From positions 25,472 through 89,471 of the forward strand of contig CAZBJL010000002.1 of the NCBI GenBank assembly GCA_964492195.1: DNA of 64,000 nucleotides, written 5' to 3'. The position numbers and the translations under genes are program-made. Under the pieces are notes generated by a model that made no database searches, had not been told where the DNA came from, and worked only from the letters and a program-made list of their open reading frames with translations. Shown piece after piece: positions 5,772-46,797 of the stretch (its first letter is position 1; every line of letters begins with the position of its first letter). This stretch comes from an uncultured Candidatus Saccharibacteria bacterium (GTDB lineage: Bacteria > Patescibacteriota > Minisyncoccia > Phycocordibacterales > DATGWK01).

Positions 5772-6024
5772 GCTGGGGATAAGGTATTGATAAGCTTTGG
5801 AATAGTTGTGAGAAAGCCTGTAGATATCTGGAAATTTCTCTAAACAAGGTGTGGATAAAAAAGCATCGAATCCCCAGATTTCAAATTCACCCACATACAG
5901 TTATATTTAATTCACACACGATGGGGACAAGAATTCACAAAAAACCCTTGAATTTAAAGAGAATTAAGCACTTATCAAGATATCCCCAGTCATAGTAATA
6001 GTAGTAGTATTTATATATAGATAT
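5762..6024. promoter_or_regulatory. putative oriC (DnaA boxes + AT-rich unwinding element) in the dnaA-dnaN intergenic region
   Basis: Perfect DnaA box tgtggataa at 5850..5858, 8/9 box tggggataa at about 5764, further degenerate boxes, AT-rich run 5988..6024 (atagtaatagtagtagtatttatatatagatat). Confidence 0.6.
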
Positions 6025-7128: not shown

Positions 7129-7131
7129 TAT

Positions 7132-7386
7132 ATGAATCATATCGACGGTTTTTTTAGTAAATTCAAAAGTGCTTTCGCCAACATGGCGAACAAAAAGGAA
7201 ATCGTTGCCGCTGTCTGTCTTGCTCACAGCAAAACCACAATTCCTTTGTCTGGTATTGAAATCCAAGGTCCTGTGCTCAGGCTTAACATTAGTCCTGCAG
7301 CAAAAAGTGCTATCTTTATGAAAAAAACAGAAATTTTAGCTGAACTTAATCAAAAAATTAAACCCGCTTTGTTTGATATTCGCTAA
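7132..7386 (+). CDS. DUF721 / DciA-like small protein
   Basis: 84 aa immediately after dnaN; C-terminal segment VLRLNISPAAKSAIFMKKTEILAELNQ resembles the DUF721 consensus (..v.v.ssawaqEl...k..il.kln). Confidence 0.45.
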   Translation: MNHIDGFFSKFKSAFANMANKKEIVAAVCLAHSKTTIPLSGIEIQGPVLRLNISPAAKSAIFMKKTEILAELNQKIKPALFDIR

Positions 7387-7397
7387 GGGTGAGCGTT

Positions 7398-9659
7398 CTA
7401 CCTATTAGAATTGTTTGAAATTCCATTTGCTGTAGCCCATGCTTGGACGCCGTATTCCCAATATTTAAACTGTGGATCATCAGAAGGGTTTGAAGGAATC
7501 GGACCCCGAGGATCGTTTTTATCTACCCAGTAGAGGATAGAGTGAACTCCACCAGAAAGAATTTCACCCAGGTCTTCGACCGGAGTAGAGTCTCGAGCAG
7601 CTCTGTTGGTGTCTGTATCGACGACTGAAGAAATGCCACCTTCCCATCTTCCTCGAAGGACAGGTTTTAGATCCAAACCATTTTCTACGACGGGTCTTTG
7701 GAATTTTGTATCAGGAACTTTTTTGAGTGCTTCTGCCATGACGTTGTGCCAGTACGGAGCAATAATAAAGGCCGCAACCTTTCTTTCCATCGAACTGTTG
7801 TCATTGTTTCCGGCCCAGGCGGCGATAGCGATGTCTGGGGTGTATCCGACAGTAATCGCGTCTTTGTAGTCGTTTGTGGTACCGGTTTTCACCGCAACGT
7901 CACGTCCTGCAAAATGAAGAGGGGAATTATATCCAAAGGCTGGAGCGCGAGCTTGTTCGTCTGACAATACGTCAGAAATTTGTTCGGCAATTTTTGCATC
8001 GAGGACACGAGTTGGGTTTGTTGTTGATTTTTCCAAAGTGTTTCCGTTTTTATCTTTTACTTCAAGAATCATGCGGGGTGCATTTCGTACACCTTCGTTC
8101 GCAAAGACGCTGTATGCACTTGTGAGGTCGAGGAGAGAGACTTCGCCACCTCCAAGGACGAGTGTGAGGCCGTACTGGCCGATGTTTGTGAGGCTTTGGA
8201 TTCCCATACTCTGTGCAAGTTTGAGTGTGTCAGTCATACCTGAAAGATAAAAGGTTTTGATCGATGCAATGTTGATCGACTGGGCCAACGCATCTCGCAT
8301 GCTCATCGGGCCGTGATACTTTCCGTCGTAGTTTACAGGCATGTAGCAGTGTGACGATGAGTTGATTGGTTTTCCGTCGACAGTACATGTTGTTGAAAAT
8401 TCTGTTGGAACGTCGAAAACAACAGTTTCTGGAGTAAAACCTTTTATGAATGCTTCGGCATACGCAAATGGTTTGAAGGCAGAACCCGGCTGACGATGAG
8501 CGGTGGTGATGTTGAAGTTACCGCTGATTTCTTTGTCGAAATAATTTCTTGAACCAACCATAGCGAGAACGTCGCCAGTTTTGGGTTCAATTGCGACGAG
8601 GCCAATGTTTTCTGCGTTAAAATTCTTTTTATTTTCTGTTGCTTGTTTCAGAGCGAGTTCCTCGGCTTTTTTCTCGAGGTCGTAGTCGAGTGTGGTGATG
8701 ACGCGGAGTCCTCCTTGTTCGAGAACTTGTTCGCCATATTTTTGGACAAGTTGGTTTCGAACTTCCATGACGAAGTGTGGCGCTTTTATACCGAACGCTT
8801 CTTGTGGTTGGAAGGTTACGACTTCAGCTTTTGCTTGGTCATATGCATCTTTTTTAATGAAACCGTTTCGAAGCATTTCACTCAAGACAAGATTTTTGCG
8901 GGCGTCGAGTTCTGCTTTGTGTGAACCGTACGGCGAATAGTATGTCGGTGCTTTTGGAAGTGCGGCGAGGTATGCAGACTCGGCGAGGGTAAGGTCTTTT
9001 GACGATGTCGCAAAAAATGCTTGGCTCGCTTCTTCAACGCCGTACAAATTTCCGCCGAAGGGGATTTCGTTGAGATAAATGTTGAAAATCTCATCTTTTG
9101 TGAGGATTTTTTCGAGTTTCGGGGCGAGTACCCATTCTTTTATCTTTCGTGAAATCTGCTTTTCGTCAGTCAAAAGAGCGTTTTTGATGACTTGTTGTGT
9201 GATCGTTGAACCACCTTGGTTGTAGCCAAGGCCTGTGATGTTGGCAAACACAGCGCGAAGGATTGAGGAAATTCTAATGCCGTTATGTTGGTAGAAGTTA
9301 ATGTCTTCGATAGCCAACACAGCTCTTTTGGCGTTTGGTGAAATATCTTCAAACGGAACCACGGTGCGTTTTACGTTTTGAAATACGTCGTAGAGGAGCA
9401 CTTCGCCGGTGCGATCATAGATTTTTGTGGATTGGGTAACCGCACGATCCTGGAAAGATTCGAGGTTTGGAATTCTCCAGCTCGAAATCCAGAGCAAAAA
9501 GAGAGCGGCGACAAAGACAAATACACCAGCTCCTACTGTTGCGGTTCGGAGCGCAAAAGGCTTATTTATTTTGGGGATTTTGATTTTTTTCACAGTTTTT
9601 CTATTTACCCGCGCGACACACAACAGAAGTAATAATAAAATCAATATTATCACAATCAC
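7398..9659 (-). CDS. class A penicillin-binding protein (transglycosylase + transpeptidase), PBP1A-like
   Basis: N-terminal TM, GT51 motifs (EDINFYQHNGI, RISSILRAV), transpeptidase SxxK (SAFKPF), SxN and KTG (KTGTT). Confidence 0.85.
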   Translation of the reverse strand: MIVIILILLLLLLCVARVNRKTVKKIKIPKINKPFALRTATVGAGVFVFVAALFLLWISSWRIPNLESFQDRAVTQSTKIYDRTGEVLLYDVFQNVKRTVVPFEDISPNAKRAVLAIEDINFYQHNGIRISSILRAVFANITGLGYNQGGSTITQQVIKNALLTDEKQISRKIKEWVLAPKLEKILTKDEIFNIYLNEIPFGGNLYGVEEASQAFFATSSKDLTLAESAYLAALPKAPTYYSPYGSHKAELDARKNLVLSEMLRNGFIKKDAYDQAKAEVVTFQPQEAFGIKAPHFVMEVRNQLVQKYGEQVLEQGGLRVITTLDYDLEKKAEELALKQATENKKNFNAENIGLVAIEPKTGDVLAMVGSRNYFDKEISGNFNITTAHRQPGSAFKPFAYAEAFIKGFTPETVVFDVPTEFSTTCTVDGKPINSSSHCYMPVNYDGKYHGPMSMRDALAQSINIASIKTFYLSGMTDTLKLAQSMGIQSLTNIGQYGLTLVLGGGEVSLLDLTSAYSVFANEGVRNAPRMILEVKDKNGNTLEKSTTNPTRVLDAKIAEQISDVLSDEQARAPAFGYNSPLHFAGRDVAVKTGTTNDYKDAITVGYTPDIAIAAWAGNNDNSSMERKVAAFIIAPYWHNVMAEALKKVPDTKFQRPVVENGLDLKPVLRGRWEGGISSVVDTDTNRAARDSTPVEDLGEILSGGVHSILYWVDKNDPRGPIPSNPSDDPQFKYWEYGVQAWATANGISNNSNR

Positions 9660-28954: not shown

Positions 28955-29356
28955 TTATTTTGCGTTCTTGTCTGCCTGATGAATGCCAAATGTATTGCCT
29001 TCGGTGTCGAGGAAATATCCTTGCCACGCCATACCGACGAGAGCAAACTTCGGCATCGCAACGATACCGCCATTTTCCAAAATCTTTTTTGCTGTTTCGT
29101 CGTAATTATCAACCTGCATGGTGCAGACAAATGCATTCGTACCACATTCTTTTTCGGCGGTTTTTGCGGGACGTTGGAGCATACCGCCGTTAATTCCTAA
29201 TTCCTTGCTGTCTTTGTCTGCGGTCATAATCATCCAGTATTCTGTTCCTGGGTTTTCCCATTTTTGAAAATTCCAATCAAAGGCGTTCTTGTAGAAATTA
29301 ATCGCGCGTTCCGGGTTGTCTACTTGAATTTCAAAATGTACTGGTCTGTTGCTCAT
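28955..29356 (-). CDS. glyoxalase/VOC-family protein
   Basis: VHFEIQVDN...GGM...FGI beta-alpha-beta-beta-beta pattern typical of VOC fold; start at MSNRPVHF. Confidence 0.55.
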   Translation of the reverse strand: MSNRPVHFEIQVDNPERAINFYKNAFDWNFQKWENPGTEYWMIMTADKDSKELGINGGMLQRPAKTAEKECGTNAFVCTMQVDNYDETAKKILENGGIVAMPKFALVGMAWQGYFLDTEGNTFGIHQADKNAK

Positions 29357-29474
29357 GATTTTAAATTTAAGAATAATCTTGCCTGCATTATAGTCTACCT
29401 TCTGAAATAACATCAAATGTTTGAAAAAGCATAACGTTGTATTTTTTTATTTTAAATTTATCTATAATGAATAC

Positions 29475-29939
29475 ATGTCACTACAAACATTTGAAAGAGC
29501 ATTTGATATTCGACTCATTCATTTTTTCCGAAGAATTTTTATTCCTGTCGCTCGGTTTGCATTATTCGCGGTTTTTTTCTGGTTCGGACTTTTGAAAGTG
29601 CTTGGACTAAGCCCGGCAAGTGGGCTCGTCCAGCGTTTGTTTGAACAGACTATCCCATTTATGTCGTTCGGTACGTTTCTTATTTTGTTCGGGCTCTTTG
29701 AATGTATTATAGGCGTTCTGTTTCTTATACGAGGAGCGGAACGGATCGTCATTCCACTTCTTTTTGTTCATATGATCACAACGTTTGGTCCGCTCTTTTT
29801 ATTGCCTGAAGAAACGTGGTCTGGGTTTTTGGTACCAACACTCGAAGGTCAGTACATCATTAAAAATCTTGTGATTATTGCGACAGGAATAGGTATTGCT
29901 TCCCATATGCATCCGATGCATATCAGCACGAAAAGGTAA
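29475..29939 (+). CDS. hypothetical 4-TM membrane protein
   Basis: Four hydrophobic helices; start at MSLQTF. Confidence 0.4.
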   Translation: MSLQTFERAFDIRLIHFFRRIFIPVARFALFAVFFWFGLLKVLGLSPASGLVQRLFEQTIPFMSFGTFLILFGLFECIIGVLFLIRGAERIVIPLLFVHMITTFGPLFLLPEETWSGFLVPTLEGQYIIKNLVIIATGIGIASHMHPMHISTKR

Positions 29940-30000
29940 GTTCTTAATTTTTATAAAAGAAAAGGCCCGAACTTTTTGTTCGAGCCAATGTTGTGTGAGG

Positions 30001-30267
30001 TTATTCGCCCACGTAAGCAGCGGTGAGGCCGCTTTTGTCGCGAACAAAATCCTCAGCTTCTTTTTCGTGAAAGGTGGCCCAGCGTCTGACCGCCATATCA
30101 AATTCTCCTCGTTTTGTGCTGTCCTCCGTGAGCTCCATGCATTGTTCGGGTTTGAGGTTCGCGATTTTCTTGACACCTTCGACCAAGCTTGCTGGCCAGT
30201 GGGATGGGTTGGTTGCAAGCAAGTGGGGAATGAGCATTCCTTGTCGGTCTGTGTAATCACGAGGCAT
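30001..30267 (-). CDS. hypothetical small protein (GC-rich), downstream member of overlapping pair
   Basis: 88 aa, local GC above 50%, 11-nt overlap with upstream ORF. Confidence 0.4.
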   Translation of the reverse strand: MPRDYTDRQGMLIPHLLATNPSHWPASLVEGVKKIANLKPEQCMELTEDSTKRGEFDMAVRRWATFHEKEAEDFVRDKSGLTAAYVGE

Positions 30268-30508
30268 TGGTAACTCCTTCTGTGGTTTTCAGGTGTGCGG
30301 CGGCTTTTTCGACCACCGTGCGAGTGATCCGGGGATTTTCTATGGCCGTATTGCCATACGCAAAACTCTGCCGTTGTTCTTCCATCTCGGTCGGGGTCAT
30401 TACGTGCCCTCGAGCCTTTGCAACAAGCATGTCTAATCTGGTCTCCACAACTACCTCCTTTTTAAAAGATTCCATATTCAATAGTAAAGATTTGTGAAAA
30501 AATGACAA
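30257..30508 (-). CDS. hypothetical small protein, upstream member of overlapping pair
   Basis: 83 aa; may start at internal MESFKKE. Confidence 0.35.
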   Translation of the reverse strand: MSFFHKSLLLNMESFKKEVVVETRLDMLVAKARGHVMTPTEMEEQRQSFAYGNTAIENPRITRTVVEKAAAHLKTTEGVTNAS

Positions 30509-30612
30509 GAAAATACCGACCTTGTCGGTATTTTTATGTTAACAGGGGATTGTTGATGTTGTTAAAACTTATTATCTGAATAATGCAAAGGCGGAAACTG
30601 TGGTACGGGAAA

Positions 30613-30987
30613 TTATCCCTGAACCAAAACTTTAAAACCACCATATGCCATCTTTTTCATATCAAAGGGCATTTCCATCTTCTTGCTGTCTGCATCCTGT
30701 GTTTTCATATTTTTCATTACTTTTGCGTTTACTTGATCTCGATGAGCGCGAGACTTGAACGTAATGAAAGAAAAGAATACGACCTCATTTTTCTTCGCTT
30801 TCGTTAATTGGGGAAAGGGAAGCGCCCACTTGGCACTCATATCGTCGGCGATACATTCTTTGTAGTCTAATGCACCATATTCTTTCCACATGCGAGCGCC
30901 CTCAAGGGCCATTTTTTTATACACTGCGAGTTTGCTTTTCGGAACTACGAGTACAAAACCATCTACGTATTTTTCTTGTGTAGTCAT
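30613..30987 (-). CDS. DUF1428-family protein
   Basis: KYVDGFVLVVPKSKLAVYKKMA...WKEYGALDYKECIADD resembles the DUF1428 consensus. Confidence 0.55.
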   Translation of the reverse strand: MTTQEKYVDGFVLVVPKSKLAVYKKMALEGARMWKEYGALDYKECIADDMSAKWALPFPQLTKAKKNEVVFFSFITFKSRAHRDQVNAKVMKNMKTQDADSKKMEMPFDMKKMAYGGFKVLVQG

Positions 30988-31077
30988 GTGTGTATCTGAT
31001 TAGTAATGATTAATTATACCCATTGCCAGAATTAAAATAGCCCGGAAAACCGGCTATTTTAAATTGGCGGAGGACCG

Positions 31078-32373
31078 TTGAGGCCGTTAGAACTCATTGG
31101 TATACTTCCTAGCATGTTCACATATCTTATTTTTGAAATATTGTCAGGGGTTTTTGGAGTCATTGCCCTTATTGTCTTAGTTATCCATTTAATAAAAAAA
31201 CCTGCAATTCGCGATATTGTAAAAAAACCCGGCATTTACGTCCCTTTCGTTTTGTTCGTGATCGCTCTTTTCACCGGCCTTATCTCCAACCGCACATACG
31301 CACCAGATTTTGCCATGCCGGCGTTCATGCACTCTCATGCTCCTGGCGGTTTACCACCGTCGATTCCTTTTTCTAAAATTTTTGATTTCTTTCAGCACGG
31401 AAAAGATTTTGCGAGGGTCGCTGATATTGGCGCCGATCCAAACGCCGTTCCGAGTGAACCGCAACAGTCAGACGTCGATGGAATTGTGAGAATAAAATTA
31501 CGAGCGCAAGAAGTGATTTCAGAAATTGCCCCAGGAATATATTTTAATTATTGGACGTACAACAATCAGGTTCCAGGACCGATGCTTCGGGTACGTGAGG
31601 GTGACACTGTTGAGGTCGAACTCACCAATGACTCAACAAGCCTGCATGATCATAATATTGACCTGCATGCGGTTACTGGTCCCGGTGGGGGCGCAACCCT
31701 TACTCACGTCGCGCCGGGGGAAACCAAGACTTTCCGGTTTAAGGCGCTCAATCCTGGTTTGTACATTTATCACTGTGCAATGCCAAACGTCAGCACCCAC
31801 AATTCACATGGGCAGTATGGGCTAATCATGGTGGATCCGTTGGATCCAACTTTAGCGCTGTCTCCGGTCGATAAAGAGTTTTATGTTTCCCAGGGTGAGC
31901 TTTATACCGAAGGTCAGCTCGGCAAAAAAGGACTTGTGCCCTTCGATAGCAATGCTTTGCTTGCGGGTGTGCCAAACTACGTCGTGTTTAATGGAAAGGT
32001 CGAAGGTGTGCCAAGAATGCAGGCAAAAGTAGGGGATAAGATAAGAATGTATGTCGGCAACGGCGGGGTGAATTTAATTTCTTCATTTCACGTCATCGGA
32101 GAAATTTTTGACACGGTGTATCCAAATGCAAGTATCGGCGGAGCGCTTGAGCACAATACTCAGGCGACAGGTGTGCTTCCTGGCGGGGCTGCTATTGTTG
32201 AGTTCACCACAGACGTGCCAGGTAAGTATTTGTTGGTTGACCACGCGCTTGCGAGAATGAACAAGGGCGCCTGGGCGGTGCTCGAGGTGTCTGGTCCGGA
32301 AAATCCAGAGATTTTTAGTCAGGTGAACGGCGGGTCTAAAGACGCCCACGTCGGAAGTATGGAGGCGAACTAG
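31078..32373 (+). CDS. copper-containing nitrite reductase-like two-domain cupredoxin (NirK-like), membrane anchored
   Basis: Two N-terminal TM helices; type-2 Cu motif HNIDLHAVTGPGGGA (cf. NirK HN.DFHAATGalGGG); type-1 site YIYHCAMPNVSTH; GC about 50%. Confidence 0.6.
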   Translation: MRPLELIGILPSMFTYLIFEILSGVFGVIALIVLVIHLIKKPAIRDIVKKPGIYVPFVLFVIALFTGLISNRTYAPDFAMPAFMHSHAPGGLPPSIPFSKIFDFFQHGKDFARVADIGADPNAVPSEPQQSDVDGIVRIKLRAQEVISEIAPGIYFNYWTYNNQVPGPMLRVREGDTVEVELTNDSTSLHDHNIDLHAVTGPGGGATLTHVAPGETKTFRFKALNPGLYIYHCAMPNVSTHNSHGQYGLIMVDPLDPTLALSPVDKEFYVSQGELYTEGQLGKKGLVPFDSNALLAGVPNYVVFNGKVEGVPRMQAKVGDKIRMYVGNGGVNLISSFHVIGEIFDTVYPNASIGGALEHNTQATGVLPGGAAIVEFTTDVPGKYLLVDHALARMNKGAWAVLEVSGPENPEIFSQVNGGSKDAHVGSMEAN

Positions 32374-32405: not shown

Positions 32406-32582
32406 AATGTGCGGGAGTGGTTAGATGCGTTTAGAACTGTTAATTGGAAGGAAATAAGGCATGAACTCCAGTTTAGTGGAATTTTGGGTTTTATACCATT
32501 ACTCCCAGATGTCGCAGTCTAATTTTCCGAAGCAGGGACTTTTCTTTTATTCTAGAAGTTAAATCCAAAAAAATGTAAGCTG

Positions 32583-33320
32583 TTGCCTATGCTAGCTTTT
32601 ATCGACGAAACCGGAGACCACAACTTAACTGTAATTGATACACAGTATCCTATATTTGGACTCGGAGTCCTTCTGATTTCTGAAAATGAATATTTGAAAA
32701 TGGATGCTGAAGTAAATTCTCTCAAAAAAAAGTTTTTTGCAGACGACGGAACCTTTATTCTGCATTCATCAGAGCTCAAGCGACCAGTTGATAAAAGGTC
32801 AGATGAACGGAACCTTTGTATGTTAAAGCCAGAAACTCGTACCTTGTTCTATAACGAGTTTGATGAACGAATCATAAAATCCTTAGATTTCAAAATTGTC
32901 ACCTGTTTTATTTTGAAAAAAAGAATGGTTGATAGATACGTGTATCCGGTAGACCCGTACTATCTTTCGTATGAAAACTTGCTTAACAGAATTATAAGAC
33001 ACGGTGGTCAAATGAACACGATGTATGTAGAAAAAAGGGGGCCTGAGCTTGATACTGAGTTGTTGTCGGAACACGAAAGATTAACAAAAACAGGCATCCA
33101 CTCTTTCTCAGCCGAGTCTGTATCTACCAAAACCAGTCTTAACCTGGTGAGTAAAAATAAAAACATGAACGGATTACAGGTTATCGACCTCGTCCTTTCT
33201 TCTTTAACTCGCGCTGGGTTGGGGAAAAAAGACAAAATGATTGGCAATGACCTTAATCCTGAATTTCTTAAAATAAAATACGCTTGCCCTGCGACAGTTT
33301 TCCCCAAAAAACGCATGTGA
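32583..33320 (+). CDS. DUF3800-family protein
   Basis: N-terminal LAFIDETGDHN (DUF3800 ..iDESG.. signature) and HSSELKR (cf. E.HAsE motif); 245 aa. Confidence 0.5.
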   Translation: MPMLAFIDETGDHNLTVIDTQYPIFGLGVLLISENEYLKMDAEVNSLKKKFFADDGTFILHSSELKRPVDKRSDERNLCMLKPETRTLFYNEFDERIIKSLDFKIVTCFILKKRMVDRYVYPVDPYYLSYENLLNRIIRHGGQMNTMYVEKRGPELDTELLSEHERLTKTGIHSFSAESVSTKTSLNLVSKNKNMNGLQVIDLVLSSLTRAGLGKKDKMIGNDLNPEFLKIKYACPATVFPKKRM

Positions 33321-33533
33321 TTTAGTACAAAAGCAAAGGGACCCCCCGCTAGGCAGTGAGTCCCTTATGCGCTCTCAGTCTACTCTATTTAGGGTCATTT
33401 TTCAACAAAAAAGACATTTCGAAACTGGGTATCAAAGCTTAGAAAATAAGTACCATTTCAAGTCTATTTTAAGCCATTTTCTACTGAGTTATTGCGAAGG
33501 AGGTTTTATTCTCACTGTAAACTAATGTAAGGT

Positions 33534-34733
33534 GTGGGAGAAAATATGACCGAGCGCAATAAACGAAAACAGGACTATTTACCGGAGGCAGATTTGTACA
33601 TACTCTGGCTTTTGTGCGATGCGAATAAAATGTTCAGAAAATCAAGAATAGTTTTCGGCGACCTCACAGCTCTTGGCTCAAGCGAAATGCTTTCGGTCGT
33701 TATCACCAAGAATCTTTCTCGTGCCTTCGGCTTTGAACTTAAAGATTTTGAACTCGTGCGAGGTAAGTACGCTTTCGATGGTTTTTGTGCTGACAAATAT
33801 GAGAAAAATAAAGAATTTTGCGAAAAGCATCCCGACAGCACAATGGCAAAAGCGTTAGCCAAAATACATGAAGGCGATTTTGATTTTGAAGATGTGGAGA
33901 AGGCGAATTTTCGTCTGAATGGATACTTGGAGTTCATTGAATTTTCTCCTCAGATTTCAAAAAAATCTAAAAAAACAATTTTGGACTTCATGTCGCGTTA
34001 CCTTACTGACTATGTGAACGACGGGCTCAGGCCAGAGAAAGAAAATTTCTACGAGTTCAACAAACAACTCCTTTTTACATACGGATTACTGAAGAAATAC
34101 ATCGACCAGTACGGGAATAGTTTTGTTTTTGAAATAGCCCAACTCACGGTGAAACCGAACGAGTTTCCCGAGCAAAAAGAAAGCCCTTACCTGCCGGTTC
34201 ACAACCTGCTTGCCCTGGAAGCAATGAAGTTTATCGAGATAGACCAGGTTTGGATTTCTGATTGGGAAGTGAATCCTGAAGAAGAGCGGGGTACTTACAA
34301 GGTACGAGTGAAAATAAATCAGGCAATGATTGATTTCTTTGGCGATTTTGACCCAAAAATCACTTACGATTTTGGTGAAAAAACGAAAGACGACTCTGCT
34401 GTAAAAACTGATGATGCTGATGCGAAACTAGAATTTGACGGTGTCACTAGAACGCTGTTTTTTGCCAACACGTCAATTCTTATCTCGAAGCAGTCAGAGA
34501 GTGACCCGTGCAAGCTAATGAAAACTCTTTTCAAGGATAAAAATAAGGTTTGGGCTAATGATGAAATATTGGAAGACTGGGGCTACTCTTTTGACGATGA
34601 AACATCGAAAAACAAGGTCTATCAGGCAGGCAAGGCCGTCAACCGGATTGTGGCTCAGGATACGAAAATAAAAGATTTCCTTGATGTTAGTACAAAATCA
34701 GTATCGATAAACAAAAAATATTTGAAGACCTAA
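33534..34733 (+). CDS. hypothetical protein (399 aa)
   Basis: SD-like aaggaggt upstream; acidic, no recognised motif; followed by hairpin + T7. Confidence 0.4.
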   Translation: MGENMTERNKRKQDYLPEADLYILWLLCDANKMFRKSRIVFGDLTALGSSEMLSVVITKNLSRAFGFELKDFELVRGKYAFDGFCADKYEKNKEFCEKHPDSTMAKALAKIHEGDFDFEDVEKANFRLNGYLEFIEFSPQISKKSKKTILDFMSRYLTDYVNDGLRPEKENFYEFNKQLLFTYGLLKKYIDQYGNSFVFEIAQLTVKPNEFPEQKESPYLPVHNLLALEAMKFIEIDQVWISDWEVNPEEERGTYKVRVKINQAMIDFFGDFDPKITYDFGEKTKDDSAVKTDDADAKLEFDGVTRTLFFANTSILISKQSESDPCKLMKTLFKDKNKVWANDEILEDWGYSFDDETSKNKVYQAGKAVNRIVAQDTKIKDFLDVSTKSVSINKKYLKT

Positions 34734-34769
34734 AAAGTTTACAAACTTTTGTAAACGAGCATACGAATA

Positions 34770-34798
34770 ACCTGAGGGCACACCCTAACAGGTTTTTT
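34770..34798 (+). terminator. rho-independent terminator
   Basis: cctgagggcacaccctaacagg + ttttttt. Confidence 0.45.
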
Positions 34799-34984
34799 TA
34801 TGTCCGACGAAAATATTATCAACGAAGAATCAAAACCGGACTGGTCGTTAAAAGAACTTGGCGAAACAGAGCGAAATAATTTACTCGGTTTTTTCGCTCT
34901 GGGTTTTAAGGTCGATAGAAGGGTAAATCCACATTTGTACAAAAAAACAGATGAGCGCTACGGAAGCTTAGAGTAAAAATAGCC

Positions 34985-36100
34985 ATGTTGGACACTGTCG
35001 TTCTAAACGTGCCGAGAGGGTCGTATAAGCTCAGACCCGAAGCGTTTACGCCAAACGCAATCATTCTCAGGATGTCTGGGAATTATCTAGTGAAGTGCGT
35101 CAATAATCCGAGTGCCGCCGACAAGAAAGCCGGAATCTATAGGCCACGTTTGACCTTAATGAAAAGGATGACACGAAACGGTAGCGAAATACCGCTTAAA
35201 ATCGAGTTCTCTGTGGCAAAGATGCTTTATGGAAATAATGTTGACGAGGTGGAAGAAATCGACTTTGAAAAAGTTATTTCGGCACTACATGAAGCAATGA
35301 TTGAAATGCAGGTCTATGTGTCGCACGAGAATTTAAGAAATGCCAAAGTGTCGGCTTTTCATCCGTCAAAAAACGTTAGGCTTACAGACGGGTACACTTC
35401 AAGCTTCGTGATTACTGAACTCCGTAAGGTTGATGTCAGTAAGAAAATGGACATTAACCGTGACAGCTTCAGGAATAGTGGACATTCGCTCCAGTTCTAC
35501 ACAAACTCCCATTCGCTTGTTGTGTACGACAAAGTTTACGACCTTAAAAAACCCGAGAAACGAGCTATGGATAAAAACCAGAACTCACTTCAACTTTCTC
35601 TCTTCGACACACTAACGAAGAAGAAAAAGACAGAGGTCTTGCGTATTGAAGCTCGACTCGCAAAAAAAGTTAAAATGAATGCGATTTTGAGAGGGCTGGG
35701 ACTCAAGGAAAATCCAACTTTTGCAGATGTTTTTAAGAAGAATGTTTGTCAGAAAATACTTCTCAATTACTGGGATGAAATCATTGTGGGTAAAAATCTT
35801 TTCTTGTTCGATGTTGAGAGCAATCCGAAGAAAACCCTTGATTCCATTTTCAAAAATAAGCCCAAAATAAAACCAAAAGACGCTCTGTACCTCGTGGGTC
35901 TCAGGGTTCTCAGTAAGGGTGGAATCAGAGACACGAGGTCGGTTGTCGAGCGGTATTCGACACCTCGAACTTGGTATCGGATAGCAAAAGATTTGAAGTT
36001 TCTCGACGACATTTCAAGTAAGACCTACCACGGTTGGGTAAGACAAATAAAAGATGCGCTCGATGATTTCGTACCATTCCGAATATCCACGGCCGAATGA
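34985..36100 (+). CDS. hypothetical protein (371 aa), possible replication/mobilisation function
   Basis: Basic, Lys-rich; located in recombinase-associated cluster; no catalytic motif securely recognised. Confidence 0.4.
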   Translation: MLDTVVLNVPRGSYKLRPEAFTPNAIILRMSGNYLVKCVNNPSAADKKAGIYRPRLTLMKRMTRNGSEIPLKIEFSVAKMLYGNNVDEVEEIDFEKVISALHEAMIEMQVYVSHENLRNAKVSAFHPSKNVRLTDGYTSSFVITELRKVDVSKKMDINRDSFRNSGHSLQFYTNSHSLVVYDKVYDLKKPEKRAMDKNQNSLQLSLFDTLTKKKKTEVLRIEARLAKKVKMNAILRGLGLKENPTFADVFKKNVCQKILLNYWDEIIVGKNLFLFDVESNPKKTLDSIFKNKPKIKPKDALYLVGLRVLSKGGIRDTRSVVERYSTPRTWYRIAKDLKFLDDISSKTYHGWVRQIKDALDDFVPFRISTAE

Positions 36101-36131
36101 TTGGCTTGTAAAGAATTGTAAAGTATAATTA

Positions 36132-36329
36132 TTGACATCAAAACATAAAACCATGAAAGAAAAAGACTTTTACACAGCAAAAGATTTAGCGGAAAAACTG
36201 GGACTGAACGTGATGACCATTTATCGTTACATCGACTCCAAGAAACTTGGAGCATATAAAATCGGCAAGGAATATCGGATAGAGAAAGTCGAGTTTGAGG
36301 CGTTTTTGAAAAAGGTAAGCACTAAATAA
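36132..36329 (+). CDS. excisionase-family helix-turn-helix DNA-binding protein
   Basis: 65 aa; FYTAKDLAEKLGLNVMTIYRYIDSKKLGAYKIGKEYRI matches the excisionase/MerR-like HTH_17 pattern. Confidence 0.6.
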   Translation: MTSKHKTMKEKDFYTAKDLAEKLGLNVMTIYRYIDSKKLGAYKIGKEYRIEKVEFEAFLKKVSTK

Positions 36330-36330
36330 A

Positions 36331-39300
36331 ATGGCCGGATTATTCAAAAATAAAATCATAAAAGGAAAGATTGAACGGTTTGAAATACCCGATTTTGACC
36401 AGAAGCTCTCGGTAGTTAAATCCTGGTCTGATGCCTACAATGCAGGGGAACTTCAAAAGAAAAATGAGACCCAGTGCGAGCAGGCTTTCAATCAAGATTT
36501 TTTCATAAACATCCTTGGCTACTCGGCTTTTCCAAAAGAAAACTACACTATTCAGCCTAAAGACAATGTGGAAAGTGGAGGCGGTCAGATGCCTGACGCA
36601 ACGCTCGGCTATTTCGGCAAAGAGGGAAAGCGTGTTGTGGCCGTCGTTGAAATAAAAGACGCCAATACATCTCTTGATAAGTCGCAGTATCGGGAAGGTA
36701 GCCTGAGTCCAATCCAGCAGGCTTTCAAATACAAACCTCAATTCAAGGAGTGTGGTTTTGTTATAGCTACGAACTTTTTTGAACTCCGATTATTCCGAGA
36801 TAATCAACTCGATTACGAAAAATTTACACTCACGGAGCTAATCGACCCAAAAGATAATTATTACAATTTTCGCAAATTCTTTTTTCTCCTGAATGTTCAG
36901 AATTTTGTAACGGAAAAGGGGCAGACAGAAACCGAAATGCTTCTTTCGGCTATTCGTGTTGAGCAAGAAAAAATTACGAACCGGTTTTATGCGCAGTATA
37001 AGGAACTCCGTGAAAGTCTAATTACCGACATCGTAGAAAACAATAAAGACATTAAGCGGCCGGACTTTTATGGTTATATCGTTGAAAAGGCGCAGAAAAT
37101 TGTAGACCGAATAGTGTTCATATGTTTCTTCGAGGACTCCGGATTGTTGCCAGAGAATAAATTGGTCGAGGTTGTTGAGTATTCGCAAAAAAGCCAGTTG
37201 AGCGAACCGATTTGGGAAACCCTAAAAAAGTTCTTTAAGGCTGTAGATGAGGGAAGTGACCGGTTGGGAGTGCCGAACGGATATAACGGTGAACTTTTTA
37301 AGCAGGACAATGACCTTGATAGGCTGAAGGTAAGCGACTCAATTTGCAAACGCTTCATCGAACTTACGAATTTTGATTTTCAGGAAGACCTCTCGGTTAA
37401 CATTCTTGGTCACATTTTTGAGCAATCTATTACCGACCTTGAGAGACTGAAACAGTATTCAGAAGCAAGCACAATCACTGTCAGTAAAAAGGACACAAAG
37501 CGTAAAAAGGATGGAATTTTTTATACACCGGAGTATGTTGTTGATTACATTGTTAAAAACTCGTTGGGTAAATTCTTGTTTGAAAAAGAGACCGAAATTT
37601 TACAGAAGTTTAATCTTGACGACAAAAGGGTAAAAGAAGCTGGCTACAATAAAAAATTGGCACAAGCGTACTCGGAGTACAGTCAGTTTTTGAGAGGCGT
37701 GAAAATTCTTGACCCCGCTTGTGGCTCCGGAGCTTTTTTGGTAAAAGTGTTCGATTACTTACTTGCCGAACATAAAAGAGTTTTCAAGGTCGTTAATGAA
37801 GCGGAGGGACTAGACGGCAATAGCGCGTTACTTTCTGAAGAGAGTTACATAAAGCCGATTTTGGAAAACAATATTTTCGGTGTAGACCTTAACCCTGAGA
37901 GCGTCGAAATAACCAAGCTTTCGCTATGGCTCAAGTCGGCTCAAAAAGGTCAGAAGCTTATTACGCTCAAAGGAAATATAAAATGTGGCAACAGTTTGAT
38001 TGATGATTCGCAGATTGCAGGTGAACGAGCTTTCAATTGGTCTGCCGAGTTTCCATCAGTTATGAATGAAGGGGGCTTTGATGTTGTCGTTGGTAATCCT
38101 CCATATGTATTTGCCCGCGGTGGTAATTTCAATGAAAAAGAAAAGGAATACTATTACGGAAAATATAAGCTCGCAAACTATCAGATAAATACCTTCCTTC
38201 TTTTTATCGAGTTATCCAGGGGTTTGTTAAAGAAAAATGGTGAACTCGGTTTCATTATCCCGAACAACTGGCTCACGATAAGTTCCTTCGCGCCATTGAG
38301 AGAATTTATCATCAAAGAAAATGGCGATGTTCACATCTACAATGCGGTAGATAAAATATTCAACCAAGCCAGTGTAGATACTTGTTTGTTGTTTTTGAAA
38401 AAAGCTGAACCAACTACTGTCGTTCTTGGCGAACTTACAGCAGAAGAGGTAACGGTCGTGTCTGAGTCAAAACCCGAAGCATTTTTTGGCAACGATTTTA
38501 TATTGAGAATTGCTCACAAAGACAAGGTAGCAATAAAGTTTAAAAATTGTATTTCTTTGAAAGAAATTGCAACCGTAAAATCAGGGCTGAAAGCTTACGA
38601 GGTTGGAAAAGGTATCCCACAGCAGACGAAAGAAATGAAAGACACTCGAGTTTATCATTCGACGACATCTAATGGCGTGGATTGGCTTAAATACCTAGAG
38701 GGAGCAGATGTTGTCCGTTATCATCTTGGTTGGTCTGGCGAATATATCAAATATGGTCATAACCTAGCGGCTCAAAGGAGTTTGGAGCTATTTAATAGCC
38801 CAAGAATTGTGGTTCGCCAGATACCCTCGCGGCCGCCTTACTGCATAAATGCAATTTATTCAAAAGACATATATATAAACGACATCAATAGCCACAATAT
38901 TCTAAATATAAAAAGTGATTACCCTTATTTATACGTTCTTGGTGTTATCAATTCGGCGTTGCTGTCTCACTGGTTTGTAAATACCTTTGATAAATTCCAG
39001 AGAAAGATTTTTCCTCAATTTAAGGTTAATGAGCTTGAGCAATTTCCAATCGCAGAGGCGACGGATAAGGACAAAAATTCACTAGAGGTTCTTGTTGGAA
39101 ATACAATTTTGGCTAATGACGAGTTCTACTCAAAACTTAACAAGAGCAAAGAGCTTTTACGCATTGAGCTTAGTCTTGAAAAATTACCGACAAAACTCAA
39201 TCATTTCTATGAATTTTCATTTGACGAAGTGCTCAAGATTTCAAAAGCATCATTGAGTTTGGATAAAAAATCAGAACTCATGGATTTCTTCACAAAACAA

Positions 39301-39432
39301 AAAGACGAACTAAAAAATCTTAACGGTCGAATCGTTGCTTTAGACCAAGAGATTGACGAGCTTGTCTATAAGGTCTATGGGCTTTTAGCCGACGAAATCA
39401 AGGTTGTAGAAGACTTCAAAAAGAACAAATGA
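36331..39432 (+). CDS. Type IIG restriction-modification enzyme (MmeI-like fused endonuclease / N6-adenine methyltransferase)
   Basis: N-terminal PD-ExK (PDATLGYF...VVAVVEIKD), gamma-class MTase motif I LDPACGSGAFL and motif IV VVGNPPYV, long C-terminal TRD; 1033 aa. Confidence 0.65.
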   Translation: MAGLFKNKIIKGKIERFEIPDFDQKLSVVKSWSDAYNAGELQKKNETQCEQAFNQDFFINILGYSAFPKENYTIQPKDNVESGGGQMPDATLGYFGKEGKRVVAVVEIKDANTSLDKSQYREGSLSPIQQAFKYKPQFKECGFVIATNFFELRLFRDNQLDYEKFTLTELIDPKDNYYNFRKFFFLLNVQNFVTEKGQTETEMLLSAIRVEQEKITNRFYAQYKELRESLITDIVENNKDIKRPDFYGYIVEKAQKIVDRIVFICFFEDSGLLPENKLVEVVEYSQKSQLSEPIWETLKKFFKAVDEGSDRLGVPNGYNGELFKQDNDLDRLKVSDSICKRFIELTNFDFQEDLSVNILGHIFEQSITDLERLKQYSEASTITVSKKDTKRKKDGIFYTPEYVVDYIVKNSLGKFLFEKETEILQKFNLDDKRVKEAGYNKKLAQAYSEYSQFLRGVKILDPACGSGAFLVKVFDYLLAEHKRVFKVVNEAEGLDGNSALLSEESYIKPILENNIFGVDLNPESVEITKLSLWLKSAQKGQKLITLKGNIKCGNSLIDDSQIAGERAFNWSAEFPSVMNEGGFDVVVGNPPYVFARGGNFNEKEKEYYYGKYKLANYQINTFLLFIELSRGLLKKNGELGFIIPNNWLTISSFAPLREFIIKENGDVHIYNAVDKIFNQASVDTCLLFLKKAEPTTVVLGELTAEEVTVVSESKPEAFFGNDFILRIAHKDKVAIKFKNCISLKEIATVKSGLKAYEVGKGIPQQTKEMKDTRVYHSTTSNGVDWLKYLEGADVVRYHLGWSGEYIKYGHNLAAQRSLELFNSPRIVVRQIPSRPPYCINAIYSKDIYINDINSHNILNIKSDYPYLYVLGVINSALLSHWFVNTFDKFQRKIFPQFKVNELEQFPIAEATDKDKNSLEVLVGNTILANDEFYSKLNKSKELLRIELSLEKLPTKLNHFYEFSFDEVLKISKASLSLDKKSELMDFFTKQKDELKNLNGRIVALDQEIDELVYKVYGLLADEIKVVEDFKKNK

Positions 39433-40901
39433 AAGCCATAATCCTCGCCAGAGTTTCGGATAAAAAACAGGACTCAAACGAGGCTCAACTTTCACGAATA
39501 CTTTCGTATGCCAAGAGTAAGAATTTAGAAAAATGGAAAGTTTTTGAGCTAGAGGAGTCGTCCACTAAAGGTGTTAGAAAAAAGTTTCAGGAAATAATCG
39601 ACATCATCCGAGCATCCAAAGAGATAATCGCGCTTGTTGTTGATACGGTAGACCGACTGCAAAGGAGTTTTCAGGAATCGGTTGTTTTCGACGAACTTCG
39701 CAGAGAAGGAAAGGTAGAAATACATTTTTTTAGAGAAAATTTAATCATCAACAAAAAATCGAATAGCGCAGACATTCTTCGTTGGGATATGGGCGTCATG
39801 TTCGCCAAAAGCTACGTGTTGCAACTCAGCGACAACGTCAAAAGGAAGCAGGACAAAATGCGAGAAGATGGAGATATAACCGGAGCGCCGCCAATCGGCT
39901 ACGAGAGTGTATATAACGAAGCAGAAAAGAAGAGAAGAATCGATGTTATTCCAGACGAAAAAGCACACTACATCGTTAAAATTTTTGAAGAATACGCAAA
40001 GGGTGACGTGTCAGTAAAAACACTTTCAGAACGGATGTATAACGTCGGCTTGAGGAGCAAGACTGGCGTGAAGGTTAATCACGCAATGATTTTCAAAATT
40101 TTGAACGACACTTTCTATCACGGTGAAGCTTATTCGCGTACGCACAAACTCAGGTATCGTCACAAGTTCAAGTCAATAATCACAAAGGAACTTTTTGATA
40201 GATGTCAGGCTGTGATGGCGAAACACAATAAAGTACCGACAAAATATGCCTCGATGCCCTTTATGTTCGGAGGAGGCTCTGTTACGTGCGCACATTGTGG
40301 CGGTACTGTCGGGGGACAACTTAAAAAGGGTAAATACGTCTATTACAGTTGTTCTGGGTACAAGAAGTGTAAGAGGGTATACGTAACCGAAGAAGAGCTT
40401 GTGGGGCAGGTATACGGCGTTCTAGACAACCTGGAGCTACCTGATGACAGGATTGAAGAAATCACTGCCGGTCTAAAGGAAATCGGCGAGAACGAGAACA
40501 AATTTTATCGAACCAATATAACCGGCCTCAGGGCGGAATATGACAAGTACGATGCAAGAATAAAGAAAATGTACGAAGACCGGCTCGACGGACGTATTAC
40601 GGAAGATTTGTATGACAGTTATTTAAGAGAGTACAAAGAAAAACAGGCTGAACTCTTGAGTCAGATGCAAGACCACTCGAGCGCTGACGAACAATTCTAT
40701 ATAACCGCGAATATGACTTTGAATATAGCCCAAAGAGCCAAAGAGATATTCTTGAGTTCTGAACCCGAGGAGAAAAGGCAATTTTTGGGTTTTCTACTTC
40801 AGAACTGTACCCTAGACGAGAAAAAGCTATATTTCTCCCTACGTTCACCCTTTAATTTCATATCGGATTACACCGATAATACTACGTTGCGGAGGAGGTG
40901 A
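39429..40901 (+). CDS. large serine recombinase (integrase)
   Basis: Resolvase catalytic domain with Ser in AIILARVSDKKQ, recombinase domain, Cys4 zinc ribbon (CAHCGG...YYSCSGYKKCK), coiled-coil tail; last 12 nt overlap tRNA-Ser 3' end. Confidence 0.8.
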   Translation: MKAIILARVSDKKQDSNEAQLSRILSYAKSKNLEKWKVFELEESSTKGVRKKFQEIIDIIRASKEIIALVVDTVDRLQRSFQESVVFDELRREGKVEIHFFRENLIINKKSNSADILRWDMGVMFAKSYVLQLSDNVKRKQDKMREDGDITGAPPIGYESVYNEAEKKRRIDVIPDEKAHYIVKIFEEYAKGDVSVKTLSERMYNVGLRSKTGVKVNHAMIFKILNDTFYHGEAYSRTHKLRYRHKFKSIITKELFDRCQAVMAKHNKVPTKYASMPFMFGGGSVTCAHCGGTVGGQLKKGKYVYYSCSGYKKCKRVYVTEEELVGQVYGVLDNLELPDDRIEEITAGLKEIGENENKFYRTNITGLRAEYDKYDARIKKMYEDRLDGRITEDLYDSYLREYKEKQAELLSQMQDHSSADEQFYITANMTLNIAQRAKEIFLSSEPEEKRQFLGFLLQNCTLDEKKLYFSLRSPFNFISDYTDNTTLRRR

Positions 40902-40975
40902 GATTCGAACTCACGGTCCCTTGCGAGACTCTCGTTTTCAAGACGAGCGCGTTAGACCACTCTGCCACTCCTCCA
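40890..40975 (-). tRNA. tRNA-Ser (anticodon TGA)
   Basis: Hand-folded: acceptor GGAGGAG/CTCCTCC, anticodon stem CTCGT/ACGAG loop CTTGAAA, long variable arm, T arm GTGAGTTCGAATCTCAC. Confidence 0.8.
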
Positions 40976-46702: not shown

Positions 46703-46785
46703 GCGCAGGTGGCGAAATTGGTAGACGCACTACCTTGAGGTGGTAACGCCCATCGGGCATGGAGGTTCAAGTCCTCTCCTGCGCA
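46703..46785 (+). tRNA. tRNA-Leu (anticodon GAG)
   Basis: 83 nt, acceptor GCGCAGG/CCTGCGC, anticodon loop TTGAGGT, long variable arm, T arm GGAGGTTCAAGTCCTCT. Confidence 0.75.
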
Positions 46786-46797
46786 CTGGTTTTTTAT

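Follow-up and report, generated by a model that had tools for sequence, protein, structure and literature searches.

A stretch of 64,000 nucleotides from an uncultured Candidatus Saccharibacteria bacterium (GenBank assembly GCA_964492195.1, contig CAZBJL010000002.1, positions 25,472 to 89,471), referred to here as the window, carries beside its tRNA-Ser(UGA) gene a segment of 8,478 bp that spans 32410-40892 and is flanked by the 5-bp core TGCGG. This segment is very probably the integrated copy of a small integrative element that combines a replication initiator-like protein (Rep), a restriction-modification (RM) cargo and a large serine recombinase (LSR) whose reading frame spans attP, the junction of the excised form. 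Joining the two ends in silico shows that the attP crossover lies within the LSR open reading frame (ORF), and that the coding segment for the last part of the protein, the tail, sits at the opposite, left extremity of the integrated copy. A preliminary description had proposed a serine-recombinase element at this tRNA that carries a Type IIG enzyme and an unexplained set of genes. The six ORFs that it listed, all on the plus strand, were recovered at the same positions by ORF listing and translation. The mobile element docked at tRNA-Ser with RM cargo is borne out by precise junctions, by LSR-free sites in related genomes, by a remnant in one of them (L026) and by related elements at other tRNAs. 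The features on which the integration site depends are as follows.

32410-32414, plus strand: left core TGCGG, the crossover region and left boundary; the same pentamer lies at 40888-40892.
32412-32522, plus strand: P' arm and tail segment, encoding the 35-aa tail R-EWLDAFRTVNWKEIRHELQFSGILGFIPLLPDVAV*, with the T-loop-like heptamer TTAGAAC at 32431-32437.
39429-40901, plus strand: LSR in its integrated short form, 490 aa, with the final codons CGG AGG AGG TGA supplied by the tRNA-Ser 3' end.
40888-40892, plus strand: right core TGCGG, the right boundary, consisting of the last 3 nt of the tRNA and 2 nt downstream.
40889-40974, minus strand: tRNA-Ser(UGA) as called by ARAGORN (40890-40974 in Rfam), intact; the B' half-site consists of its acceptor and T arm.

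The ends of the element were located by comparison with two related loci, L026 and L087, and not by repeats. Similarity with both starts exactly at TGCGG 32410, and the left flanks are unrelated. L087 holds an intact orthologous element at tRNA-Ser, with an LSR 74% identical to that of the window and the same left block 7.2 kb leftward. In L026, a block of about 41 nt situated about 1.7 kb left of an LSR remnant is 95% (39/41 nt) identical to 32410-32450. The element therefore starts at 32410 and not at 32583, and the 170 nt upstream of the DUF3800 gene belong to it. On the right, the core covers the final 3 nt of the tRNA, which the insertion leaves intact. No long direct or inverted repeats were found between the ends of the island, as expected for a serine integrase, and the GC and skew profiles gave no clear island signal. 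The left block was also considered as a decayed tRNA 3' fragment. This was rejected, since the block is 95% identical across hosts with differing acceptor stems and is protein-coding.

The recombinase has the domains of an LSR, with the catalytic domain at residues 3-148 (PF00239, 1.6e-13), PF07508 (2.8e-10), PF13408 (Zn_ribbon_recom, 6e-7) and a match to phrog_95 integrase (4e-52). The closest NCBIfam model, CcrA, scored 38 bits against a cut-off of 700. Ser10 lies in the nucleophile motif ARVSDKKQ, which is kept; the enzyme is not obviously dead, the state that the preliminary description had named as speaking against its reading. As described there, its stop codon (40899-40901) falls 12-13 nt within the 3' end of tRNA-Ser(UGA). 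When both ends of the element are joined at the core, the ORF grows in frame from 490 to 523 aa. The predicted attP junction of the excised circle reads ...GATAATACTACGTTGCGGGAGTGGTTAGATGCG... (k-mer CCGATAATACTACGTTGCGGGAGTGGTTAGATGCGTTTAG) and the predicted empty attB reads ...CTCTTTTAAATGTGCGGAGGAGGTGAGATTCG... (k-mer GCTCTTTTAAATGTGCGGAGGAGGTGAGATTCGAAC), both derived in silico.

Related elements were studied in 88 loci that were fetched by homology to the 371-aa Rep (p371) and whose ORFs were clustered, so p371 is present in all of them by construction. The tail of the window copy contains the motif WLDAFRTVNWKEIxxELQFSG..., which takes the form (W/L)LP(L)L(D/N)xFRT(V/L)(D/N)WxxIKxELxFSG in the family. 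This motif was found on the LSR strand to the left of Rep in 36 loci, with unrelated sequence or stop codons ahead of it in the integrated copies. In four contigs the tail is fused to the LSR C-terminus (L162, 530 aa; L109, 528 aa; L141; L120), and in L097, L091, L149 and L136 the LSR that runs into the tail of the following element belongs to another clade. Some of the contigs with a fusion are tandem arrays, a second element having integrated behind the first. Among nine non-redundant elements, seven gave an in-frame junction with automatic choice of the core; for L104 and L160, reading the cores GCGG and GGT by hand also puts the junction in frame. A literature search returned no serine integrase with an ORF that spans attP.

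The chief uncertainty for the most interesting claim is that the tail may have no function of its own. It would then be simple read-through over the P' half-site, conserved only through constraint on the attP DNA, and we regard this as unlikely, with a share of the probability that must be taken seriously. The most conserved tail codons, F-R-T (TTY AGA ACN), coincide with the DNA motif TTYAGAAC, with Arg always encoded by AGA. Because these codons overlap the motif, this stretch is constrained at both the DNA and the protein level. However, conservation continues for 8-17 codons past the motif, about 45-70 nt from the core, which is outside the half-site of about 27 bp of a serine integrase. 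At codons +3, +8, +11 and +12 from the Phe, the second base is fixed whereas the first and third vary (Leu as TTR/CTN, Ile/Val and Glu/Asp alternation), a pattern that extends to about 50 nt past the DNA motif and argues for purifying selection on the tail as a protein. In 36 unique sequences, the median length of open tail frame beyond the Phe is 27 codons, compared with 3 and 0 in the other two frames, and the junction could be joined in frame in all nine elements tested. Small hydrophobic residues (-NLA, -QIA, -VAV, -LAV) form the C-terminus of about a third of the tails, which is a weak hint of a degron.

The attachment sites of the family follow a common plan. The core is the extreme tRNA 3' end in each target group, namely TGCGG for Ser, GCTCC for Asn and GGGT (within TTGGGT) for His, and the common cores measure 4-6 bp. 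On the tRNA side, all nine elements have the T-loop heptamer [TAC]T[CT]GAAC, usually TTCGAAC or ATCGAAC, 10-11 nt from the core; in the window, TTCGAAC is at 40904-40910, 11 nt away. On the element side, all nine have TTYAGAAC 15-16 nt from the core, so that the outer motifs of attP and attB are shifted by exactly 5 bp in nine of nine. In structures of phiC31 integrase, the zinc-ribbon domain (ZD) contacts +/-17-27 of attP and is shifted 5 bp towards the centre at attB (bioRxiv 10.1101/2025.05.02.651858). The shift in the nine elements matches the geometry expected of this domain at attB versus attP. By analogy, we infer that the ZD of these LSRs may read the near-universal tRNA T-loop. Such reading would account for moves of the family between tRNA-Ser, Asn, His and Gln in which only the inner part of the site changes.

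The surroundings of the tRNA were compared with those in related genomes. RuvX, encoded to the right of the tRNA, has relatives only in Patescibacteria/Paceibacteria metagenome-assembled genomes, the best being 72-73% identical. The conserved gene order is tRNA-Lys, tRNA-Arg(gcg), a gene of about 159 aa, tRNA-Ser(tga), a gene of about 89 aa, RuvX and PilM, followed by tRNA-Arg(tct), tRNA-Val, tRNA-Leu and tRNA-His. The distance from tRNA-Arg(gcg) to tRNA-Ser is 12.5 kb in the window versus 0.5-0.8 kb in L020/L021. The preliminary description had suggested looking for an unoccupied tRNA-Ser site in relatives and had held that the same block in all of them would speak against mobility. The comparison covered 48 syntenic genomes in which 1.5 kb or more is available 3' of tRNA-Ser(tga). 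Of these, 45 lack an LSR-like ORF within 2.5 kb on that side, so the block is sporadic. The remnant in L026 is a 97-aa LSR C-terminus beside tRNA-Ser, 68% identical and with the same ...TLRRR* end within the tRNA, while LSR orthologues at the same tRNA were found in L087 and L094 (74-80% identity). In L094, a tRNA called 'Stop(tta)' (4476-4549) lies upstream of the element. Unrelated LSRs, about 25% identical to that of the window, also adjoin tRNA-Ser(tga) in L002 (460-1503; the closest relative) and L067 (6692-7666); thus, several recombinase lineages use this tRNA. Further along the window, an ARAGORN call of 'tRNA-???' at 46703-46786 is a tRNA-Leu(GAG) by sequence and synteny, a parsing oddity and not a novel tRNA.

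Homologues of p371 number in the hundreds and reach 86% identity, and a Rep profile search returned 1,246 clusters at 50% identity, including 576 below 1e-30. The family is widespread in Patescibacteria (Paceibacteria), and its members are small, probably self-replicating integrative elements; no description of it was found in the literature searched. The gene order is a p399-family protein, a 58-aa protein (p58), p371, a helix-turn-helix protein of the HTH_17 family, a cargo slot, the LSR and a tRNA on the opposite strand. A p399-family protein occurs in 41 loci, with unrelated alternatives in that place elsewhere (clusters c8, c13 and c20), and the second position holds p58 or cluster c6. 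HTH_17 follows Rep directly in 60/88 loci, including elements free of cargo, and its gap to the LSR ranges from 0 to 6.7 kb across elements. The elements that carry no cargo are L087, L104, L127, L135, L148, L165 and L167.

The LSR was found in 51 loci. In 33 of these it was not cut by the end of the locus, and for 22 of the 33 an oppositely oriented tRNA lies no more than 200 nt from the stop codon; in 21 of the 22, the stop lies 13-63 nt within the tRNA. The targets are tRNA-Ser-tga, a Ser read as 'act', Asn-gtt (the commonest), His-gtg and Gln-ctg. The Ser-group tRNAs called with the unusual anticodon ACT are those at L082 5714-5799 and L104 12794-12884. Tandem arrays of two elements at one tRNA occur in L141, L097, L091, L149, L136 and L137. 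In them, the LSR of the upstream element continues in frame into the tail segment of the downstream one, also where the two LSRs are of different clades. A tRNA-Arg(tct) (1886-1958 in L136) and a conserved gene of about 95 aa (cluster c32) stand directly after the tail segment in L136. In L167, a tRNA-Arg(tct) stands directly left of the c32 gene, near the tail segment, and this tRNA may be carried by the element in both.

The backbone genes of the window copy and the region between them are listed here.

33534-34733, plus strand: p399, 399 aa, with a hypervariable N-terminal region and a conserved C-terminal winged-helix domain (about 300-399).
34733-34799, plus strand: putative control region, with the palindrome AAAAGTTTACAAACTTTT at 34733-34750, a hairpin at 34771-34792 and a T7 run abutting the p58 start.
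34800-34976, plus strand: p58, conserved in 31 loci at the same position, just upstream of Rep.
34985-36100, plus strand: p371 (Rep), 371 aa, with invariant Y181-D182-K183.
36132-36329, plus strand: HTH_17, 65 aa (Pfam 3.6e-14, TIGR01764 9e-13, phrog_66 excisionase 4e-10).

Three upstream proteins had earlier been considered to lack an assignable function. This no longer applies to the 371-aa and 399-aa proteins. By sequence, p371 is probably a distant relative of the G2P (Phage_CRI)/Rep_trans rolling-circle initiators. It matches phrog_702 'replication protein' weakly (1.4e-4), and 7 of 39 homologues match PF05144. One homologue, P0356, exceeds the gathering scores of both PF02486 (31.9 vs 29.6) and PF05144 (30.5 vs 21.7), and the YDK motif with the invariant Y181 falls inside the matched region. 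The protein could act as a relaxase instead of, or besides, a replicase.

In most homologues of p399, only the last 110 or so residues are conserved. This C-terminal domain is modelled by AF2 with pLDDT >90, and Foldseek aligns it with the DNA-binding domains of ToxR, GlnR, PhoP and PhoB (TM 0.6-0.72 on the target, with weak E-values). The model identifies p399 as an OmpR/PhoB/ToxR-type winged-helix DNA-binding protein of the backbone. A member of its family lies directly upstream of Rep in 35/59 loci, and p399 has no match in Pfam, PADLOC, PHROGs or NCBIfam. Its stop codon overlaps the perfect palindrome AAAAGTTTACAAACTTTT, and the hairpin and T7 run reach the ATG of p58. In a 14-element alignment of 34733-34799, the palindrome varies by lineage and the shape of the hairpin is kept through compensatory changes. 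From its sequence, the region is a candidate operator, attenuator, terminator or replication origin.

The conserved p58 ORF was absent from the preliminary list. Many rolling-circle replicating (RCR) plasmids encode a small protein just upstream of rep. To judge by its position only, p58 is possibly a copy-control or DNA-binding protein; it has no family match in PADLOC, PHROGs or NCBIfam.

The excisionase-type helix-turn-helix that had been noted at 36132-36329 is confirmed by its matches to HTH_17 and to TIGR01764 'excise'. This MerR-type, excisionase-like protein is a candidate recombination directionality factor (RDF) or regulator. A promoter-like site precedes it at 36101-36129, in a promoter and terminator scan whose counts were not above shuffled expectation. 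The gene is part of the backbone and occurs without any methyltransferase (MTase) in some elements. The island does not belong to the MADS systems, as MAD1 scored 29.3 bits against a cut-off of 80 and MAD2 scored 56.9 against 720 (NCBIfam).

The slot between HTH_17 and the LSR holds the RM cargo.

36331-39432, plus strand: Type IIG enzyme, 1033 aa, variable cargo between HTH_17 and the LSR.

The fused MmeI-like enzyme that had been predicted here was confirmed by Pfam (Eco57I 2.9e-41, TaqI_C 7.6e-21, MmeI_Mtase 7e-13 and N6_Mtase) and by the PADLOC model REase_MTase_IIG (1e-118); MmeI_N matched weakly, at 20 bits against a cut-off of 27. With DPACGSGAFL, NPPY and PD...ExK in its translation, the protein is by sequence a Type IIG (MmeI-like) fusion of endonuclease, methyltransferase and specificity domains. 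It shares with the MmeI-family Type IIG/IIL enzymes the single-chain layout of N-terminal PD-ExK nuclease, gamma-class N6-adenine MTase and TaqI_C-type specificity domain, and nothing unusual was detected in it by comparison. No BREX system is indicated: the best PglX model reached 124.9 bits against 500 (NCBIfam), and PADLOC found no other BREX genes in the block.

Type IIG enzymes fill the cargo slot in 19 loci. Elsewhere the slot pairs an N6/N4-MTase with a ResIII helicase (Type III-like), R.HpaII with a C5-MTase, an S subunit with a IIG/Type I-like MTase, or a PLD-SNF2 protein with a IIG-like MTase. Overall identity between the window enzyme and the L168 cargo (5251-8475) is 52%, compared with 35% for the LSRs and 41% for the Reps of the two elements. 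By eye, the two enzymes are highly similar over the first 590 or so residues and at the C-terminus, and similarity is low at about 600-900, the specificity region. These comparisons suggest exchange of cargo between elements and a swap of the specificity domain.

A life cycle can be proposed from this arrangement. The genes for p58, Rep, HTH_17, the IIG enzyme and the LSR would form one operon, with gaps of 8, 31 and 1 nt and then a 4-nt overlap. The short LSR would excise the element as a circle, probably with HTH_17 as the directionality factor. Rep would copy the circle by rolling-circle replication, from an origin perhaps at 34733-34799, and the long LSR would re-integrate the circle at the tRNA 3' end by recognizing the T-loop. 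The RM cargo would protect the host, stabilize the element, or both.

Within this cycle, the tail would be a switch that depends on the integration state and could set directionality or protein stability. We put forward, tentatively and with the balance still somewhat against it, an isoform switch encoded in the topology of the element together with the T-loop as the outer attB motif. The chromosome would yield an LSR without a tail and the circle an LSR with an amphipathic tail of about 35 aa, and the two would differ in direction or in stability. Since HTH_17 and the LSR appear to be co-transcribed, such a switch would tell the enzyme its direction. In one variant, the tail would make the integrase insensitive to the co-transcribed HTH_17, so that a free circle integrates. 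In another, the tail would be a degron. In both variants, direction would be set without separate regulation of an RDF.

Some features of the assemblies touch on the free form. Of 36 loci, 13 start less than 200 nt from the left att junction (L085, L086, L095, L097, L100, L105, L111, L115, L120, L125, L139, L141 and L145), and many end shortly past the LSR stop. The Logan contig that corresponds to the window, which is the one behind L001 and L088, extends from about tRNA-Arg(gcg) to 15 nt beyond the LSR stop. Such breaks of assemblies at att sites would fit a mixture of integrated, empty and excised forms in populations. A circularity check found terminal overlap in no contig. In L109, a c5 gene is split over the contig ends with the right spacing, the frame being off by 2 nt in this approximate test, a result that hints at a circular L109.

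Several results weigh against an element that is active in the way proposed here. No excised circle or attP junction of this copy was observed, and the reconstructed 523-aa LSR is absent, by exact look-up, from a collection of 15 billion proteins. Exact look-ups of the LSR and of the neighbouring Cu-oxidase returned one Logan contig only, with the same arrangement. The contigs in which an LSR is fused to a tail could be tandem arrays rather than circles. The window p371 has no match of its own in Pfam, PADLOC or NCBIfam, its assignment coming through homologues and the weak PHROG match. The Rep profile found nothing among PDB sequences, nor did tblastn of Rep against annotated phages and plasmids. 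The region 34733-34799 is a candidate origin, and the directionality role of HTH_17 is likewise that of a candidate. By eye, no clear dyad symmetry was seen between the P and P' arms, and a function of the tail is something that we infer.

The element might instead be a phage satellite or cryptic prophage, PICI- or tycheposon-like, that uses the capsids of a helper and is amplified by Rep during helper infection. Its size and layout, with integrase, excisionase-like HTH, replication module and defence cargo at a tRNA, are those of satellites (bioRxiv 10.1101/2020.12.28.424599), and one partial Rep homologue lies on an IMG/VR contig. Neither the window copy nor the recurrent clusters scanned contain a capsid, terminase, portal or packaging gene, however, and Rep has no counterpart in annotated phages. 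Confirmed Rep matches number 1 in 2.9 million viral contigs versus more than 428 in metagenome contigs, and we consider a satellite improbable. A 19-mer from the left block gave no match in IMG/VR.

The lack of an excised form or of any other context for the exact copy, together with the decayed relative in L026, would suit a fixed and immobile remnant, in effect a domesticated RM locus with a leftover integrase. Against this, all backbone ORFs are full length, the catalytic motif of the LSR is kept, the tail segment is intact and in frame, the two cores are identical and the left block matches that of other elements at 95% identity. That this copy is such a remnant is accordingly quite unlikely, and an integrated copy of a mobile element remains the preferred reading.

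The left-end slot of the element carries an accessory gene and a hairpin.

32583-33320, plus strand: DUF3800 protein, 245 aa (PF12686 8e-11, above the Pfam gathering score).
33335-33366, strand not assigned: hairpin GGGAC-CCCCCGCTAGGCAGTGA-GTCCC, immediately 3' of DUF3800.

The DUF3800 protein has an RNase H-like fold with a probable nuclease active site. It is accessory cargo and not backbone, being present in a minority of elements and elsewhere a stand-alone chromosomal gene; in L169, L170 and L173 it occurs without p399 or p371. The preliminary description had viewed it, with the 399-aa and 371-aa proteins, as possible members of a new defence system, and had recommended a PADLOC run. In that run none of the three matched, and NCBIfam and PHROGs likewise gave no match for DUF3800. 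The three do not form one unit, because p371 and p399 have separate backbone roles and are distributed independently of DUF3800. That they constitute a multi-gene anti-phage system beside the RM enzyme is very improbable: the genes lie in one orientation on a mobile element and adjoin its RM enzyme, the RNase H fold of DUF3800 is nuclease-like and the N-terminal region of p399 is hypervariable, as in many sensor proteins, but p371, p58 and the p399 family accompany HTH_17 and the LSR where there is no RM and no DUF3800 (L104, L127, L135, L148 and L165), p371 is akin to rolling-circle initiators, and DUF3800 is absent from most elements.

The hairpin lies 3' of DUF3800 in four genomes, the window, L169 (10745-10780), L170 and L173, with a conserved loop CCCCCGC-N3-4-GCAGTGA and stems that change in a compensatory manner (GGGAC/GTCCC, AGAGC/GCTCT and GGGGG/CCCCC). 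Eleven unrelated RNA motifs of unknown function have been associated with DUF3800 genes (Weinberg et al., 2017; PMC5737381). The hairpin matches no Rfam family. An Rfam search around DUF3800 at permissive thresholds returned no DUF3800 motif, and the minus-strand fold of the 213-nt spacer beside the gene was not unusual (z = -1.35). Another type of DUF3800, in L084 and L087, is followed by a different block of about 90 nt that is conserved between both loci.

To the left of the element and outside it, the region 28955-32373, which reaches from the conserved 159-aa gene to the element, contains small ORFs, DUF1428, a glyoxalase-like gene and the gene for a multicopper oxidase/cupredoxin protein of 431 aa that has a membrane segment at its N-terminus. 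Among the ORFs tested there, a 172-aa ORF (29421-29939) was alone in matching a syntenic relative, L026. This region may be older material left at the same tRNA hot spot.

As a kind, an element that unites a serine integrase, a replication module and RM cargo is known. Its LSR has the same domains (catalytic Ser, recombinase, zinc ribbon) as phiC31, Bxb1, A118/LI, SPbeta SprA and SCCmec Ccr, with equally short att sites and a tiny core, and the phiC31 structures show the same 5-bp outward offset of the element-side motif. The window LSR differs from known large serine integrases in targeting the extreme tRNA 3' end with the T-loop as outer motif, and in an attP located in the integrase ORF, so that the C-terminus differs by state. 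Targeting of tRNA genes is classically a trait of tyrosine integrases (PMC9262239) and is called typical of them in the Islander abstract.

The nearest precedent for a state-dependent C-terminus, by analogy, is the integration-dependent immunity of mycobacteriophages. In BPs and Brujita, the repressor gene contains attP, and the repressor loses a C-terminal degradation tag on integration (Broussard et al., 2013; PMC9262239). These phages share with the window element an attP in a coding gene, an attB over a tRNA 3' end and replacement of the C-terminus on integration. They differ in splitting the gene of the repressor, in having a tyrosine recombinase as integrase and in a proven ssrA-like tag, whereas here the split gene is that of the serine integrase itself. 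Fuselloviruses of the SSV type likewise carry attP in the integrase ORF, which is divided when they integrate into a tRNA gene. Their enzyme, a tyrosine recombinase, is broken into two large fragments that are presumably inactive. In contrast, the window LSR exchanges about 35 C-terminal residues and retains all of its catalytic and DNA-binding domains.

Among small cargo-bearing elements, the Prochlorococcus tycheposons mostly encode tyrosine recombinases (910/937) and primase, helicase or polymerase modules, and form tandem arrays when a second element integrates behind the first (bioRxiv 10.1101/2020.12.28.424599). Tycheposons and PICI-like elements resemble the present family as small, cargo-bearing and replication-competent tRNA elements, with streamlined hosts, arrays, remnants and defence cargo. 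The family differs from tycheposons in its LSR, its G2P/Rep_trans-like initiator and its phylum, and the likeness is one of function. Of the features by which satellites are defined, a tRNA-targeting integrase, a replication module and cargo are present in the element, whereas capsid, terminase and packaging-interference genes were not found in the window copy or in the recurrent clusters scanned. The initiator is likened to the pT181 family, Ff gene II and the MOB_T relaxases of streptococcal integrative and conjugative elements (ICEs) and integrative and mobilizable elements (IMEs), in that members pass the Rep_trans and Phage_CRI thresholds and have the Tyr in YDK. Kinship of p371 with Rep_trans/G2P is very distant, and the window protein itself is without a Pfam match. 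What appears to be new is an LSR that is directed to tRNA 3' ends, would read the T-loop there and has a C-terminus that depends on the state of the element, within a phylum-specific family of very large size.

Patescibacteria (also known as CPR) have tiny genomes and make up a large share of bacterial diversity, and their mobile elements are barely characterized. The genes that had seemed unexplained are housekeeping genes of the element and not a new defence system. The rewriting of the integrase C-terminus by integration and excision offers a directly testable form of directionality control. For genome engineering, the family provides conserved natural landing sites and related enzymes with different tRNA targets, possibly with a built-in directionality switch; if T-loop reading holds true, these would be naturally retargetable tRNA-gene integrases. 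In the biology of the Patescibacteria, the family appears to be a major vehicle of RM systems and builds a variable region beside tRNA genes.

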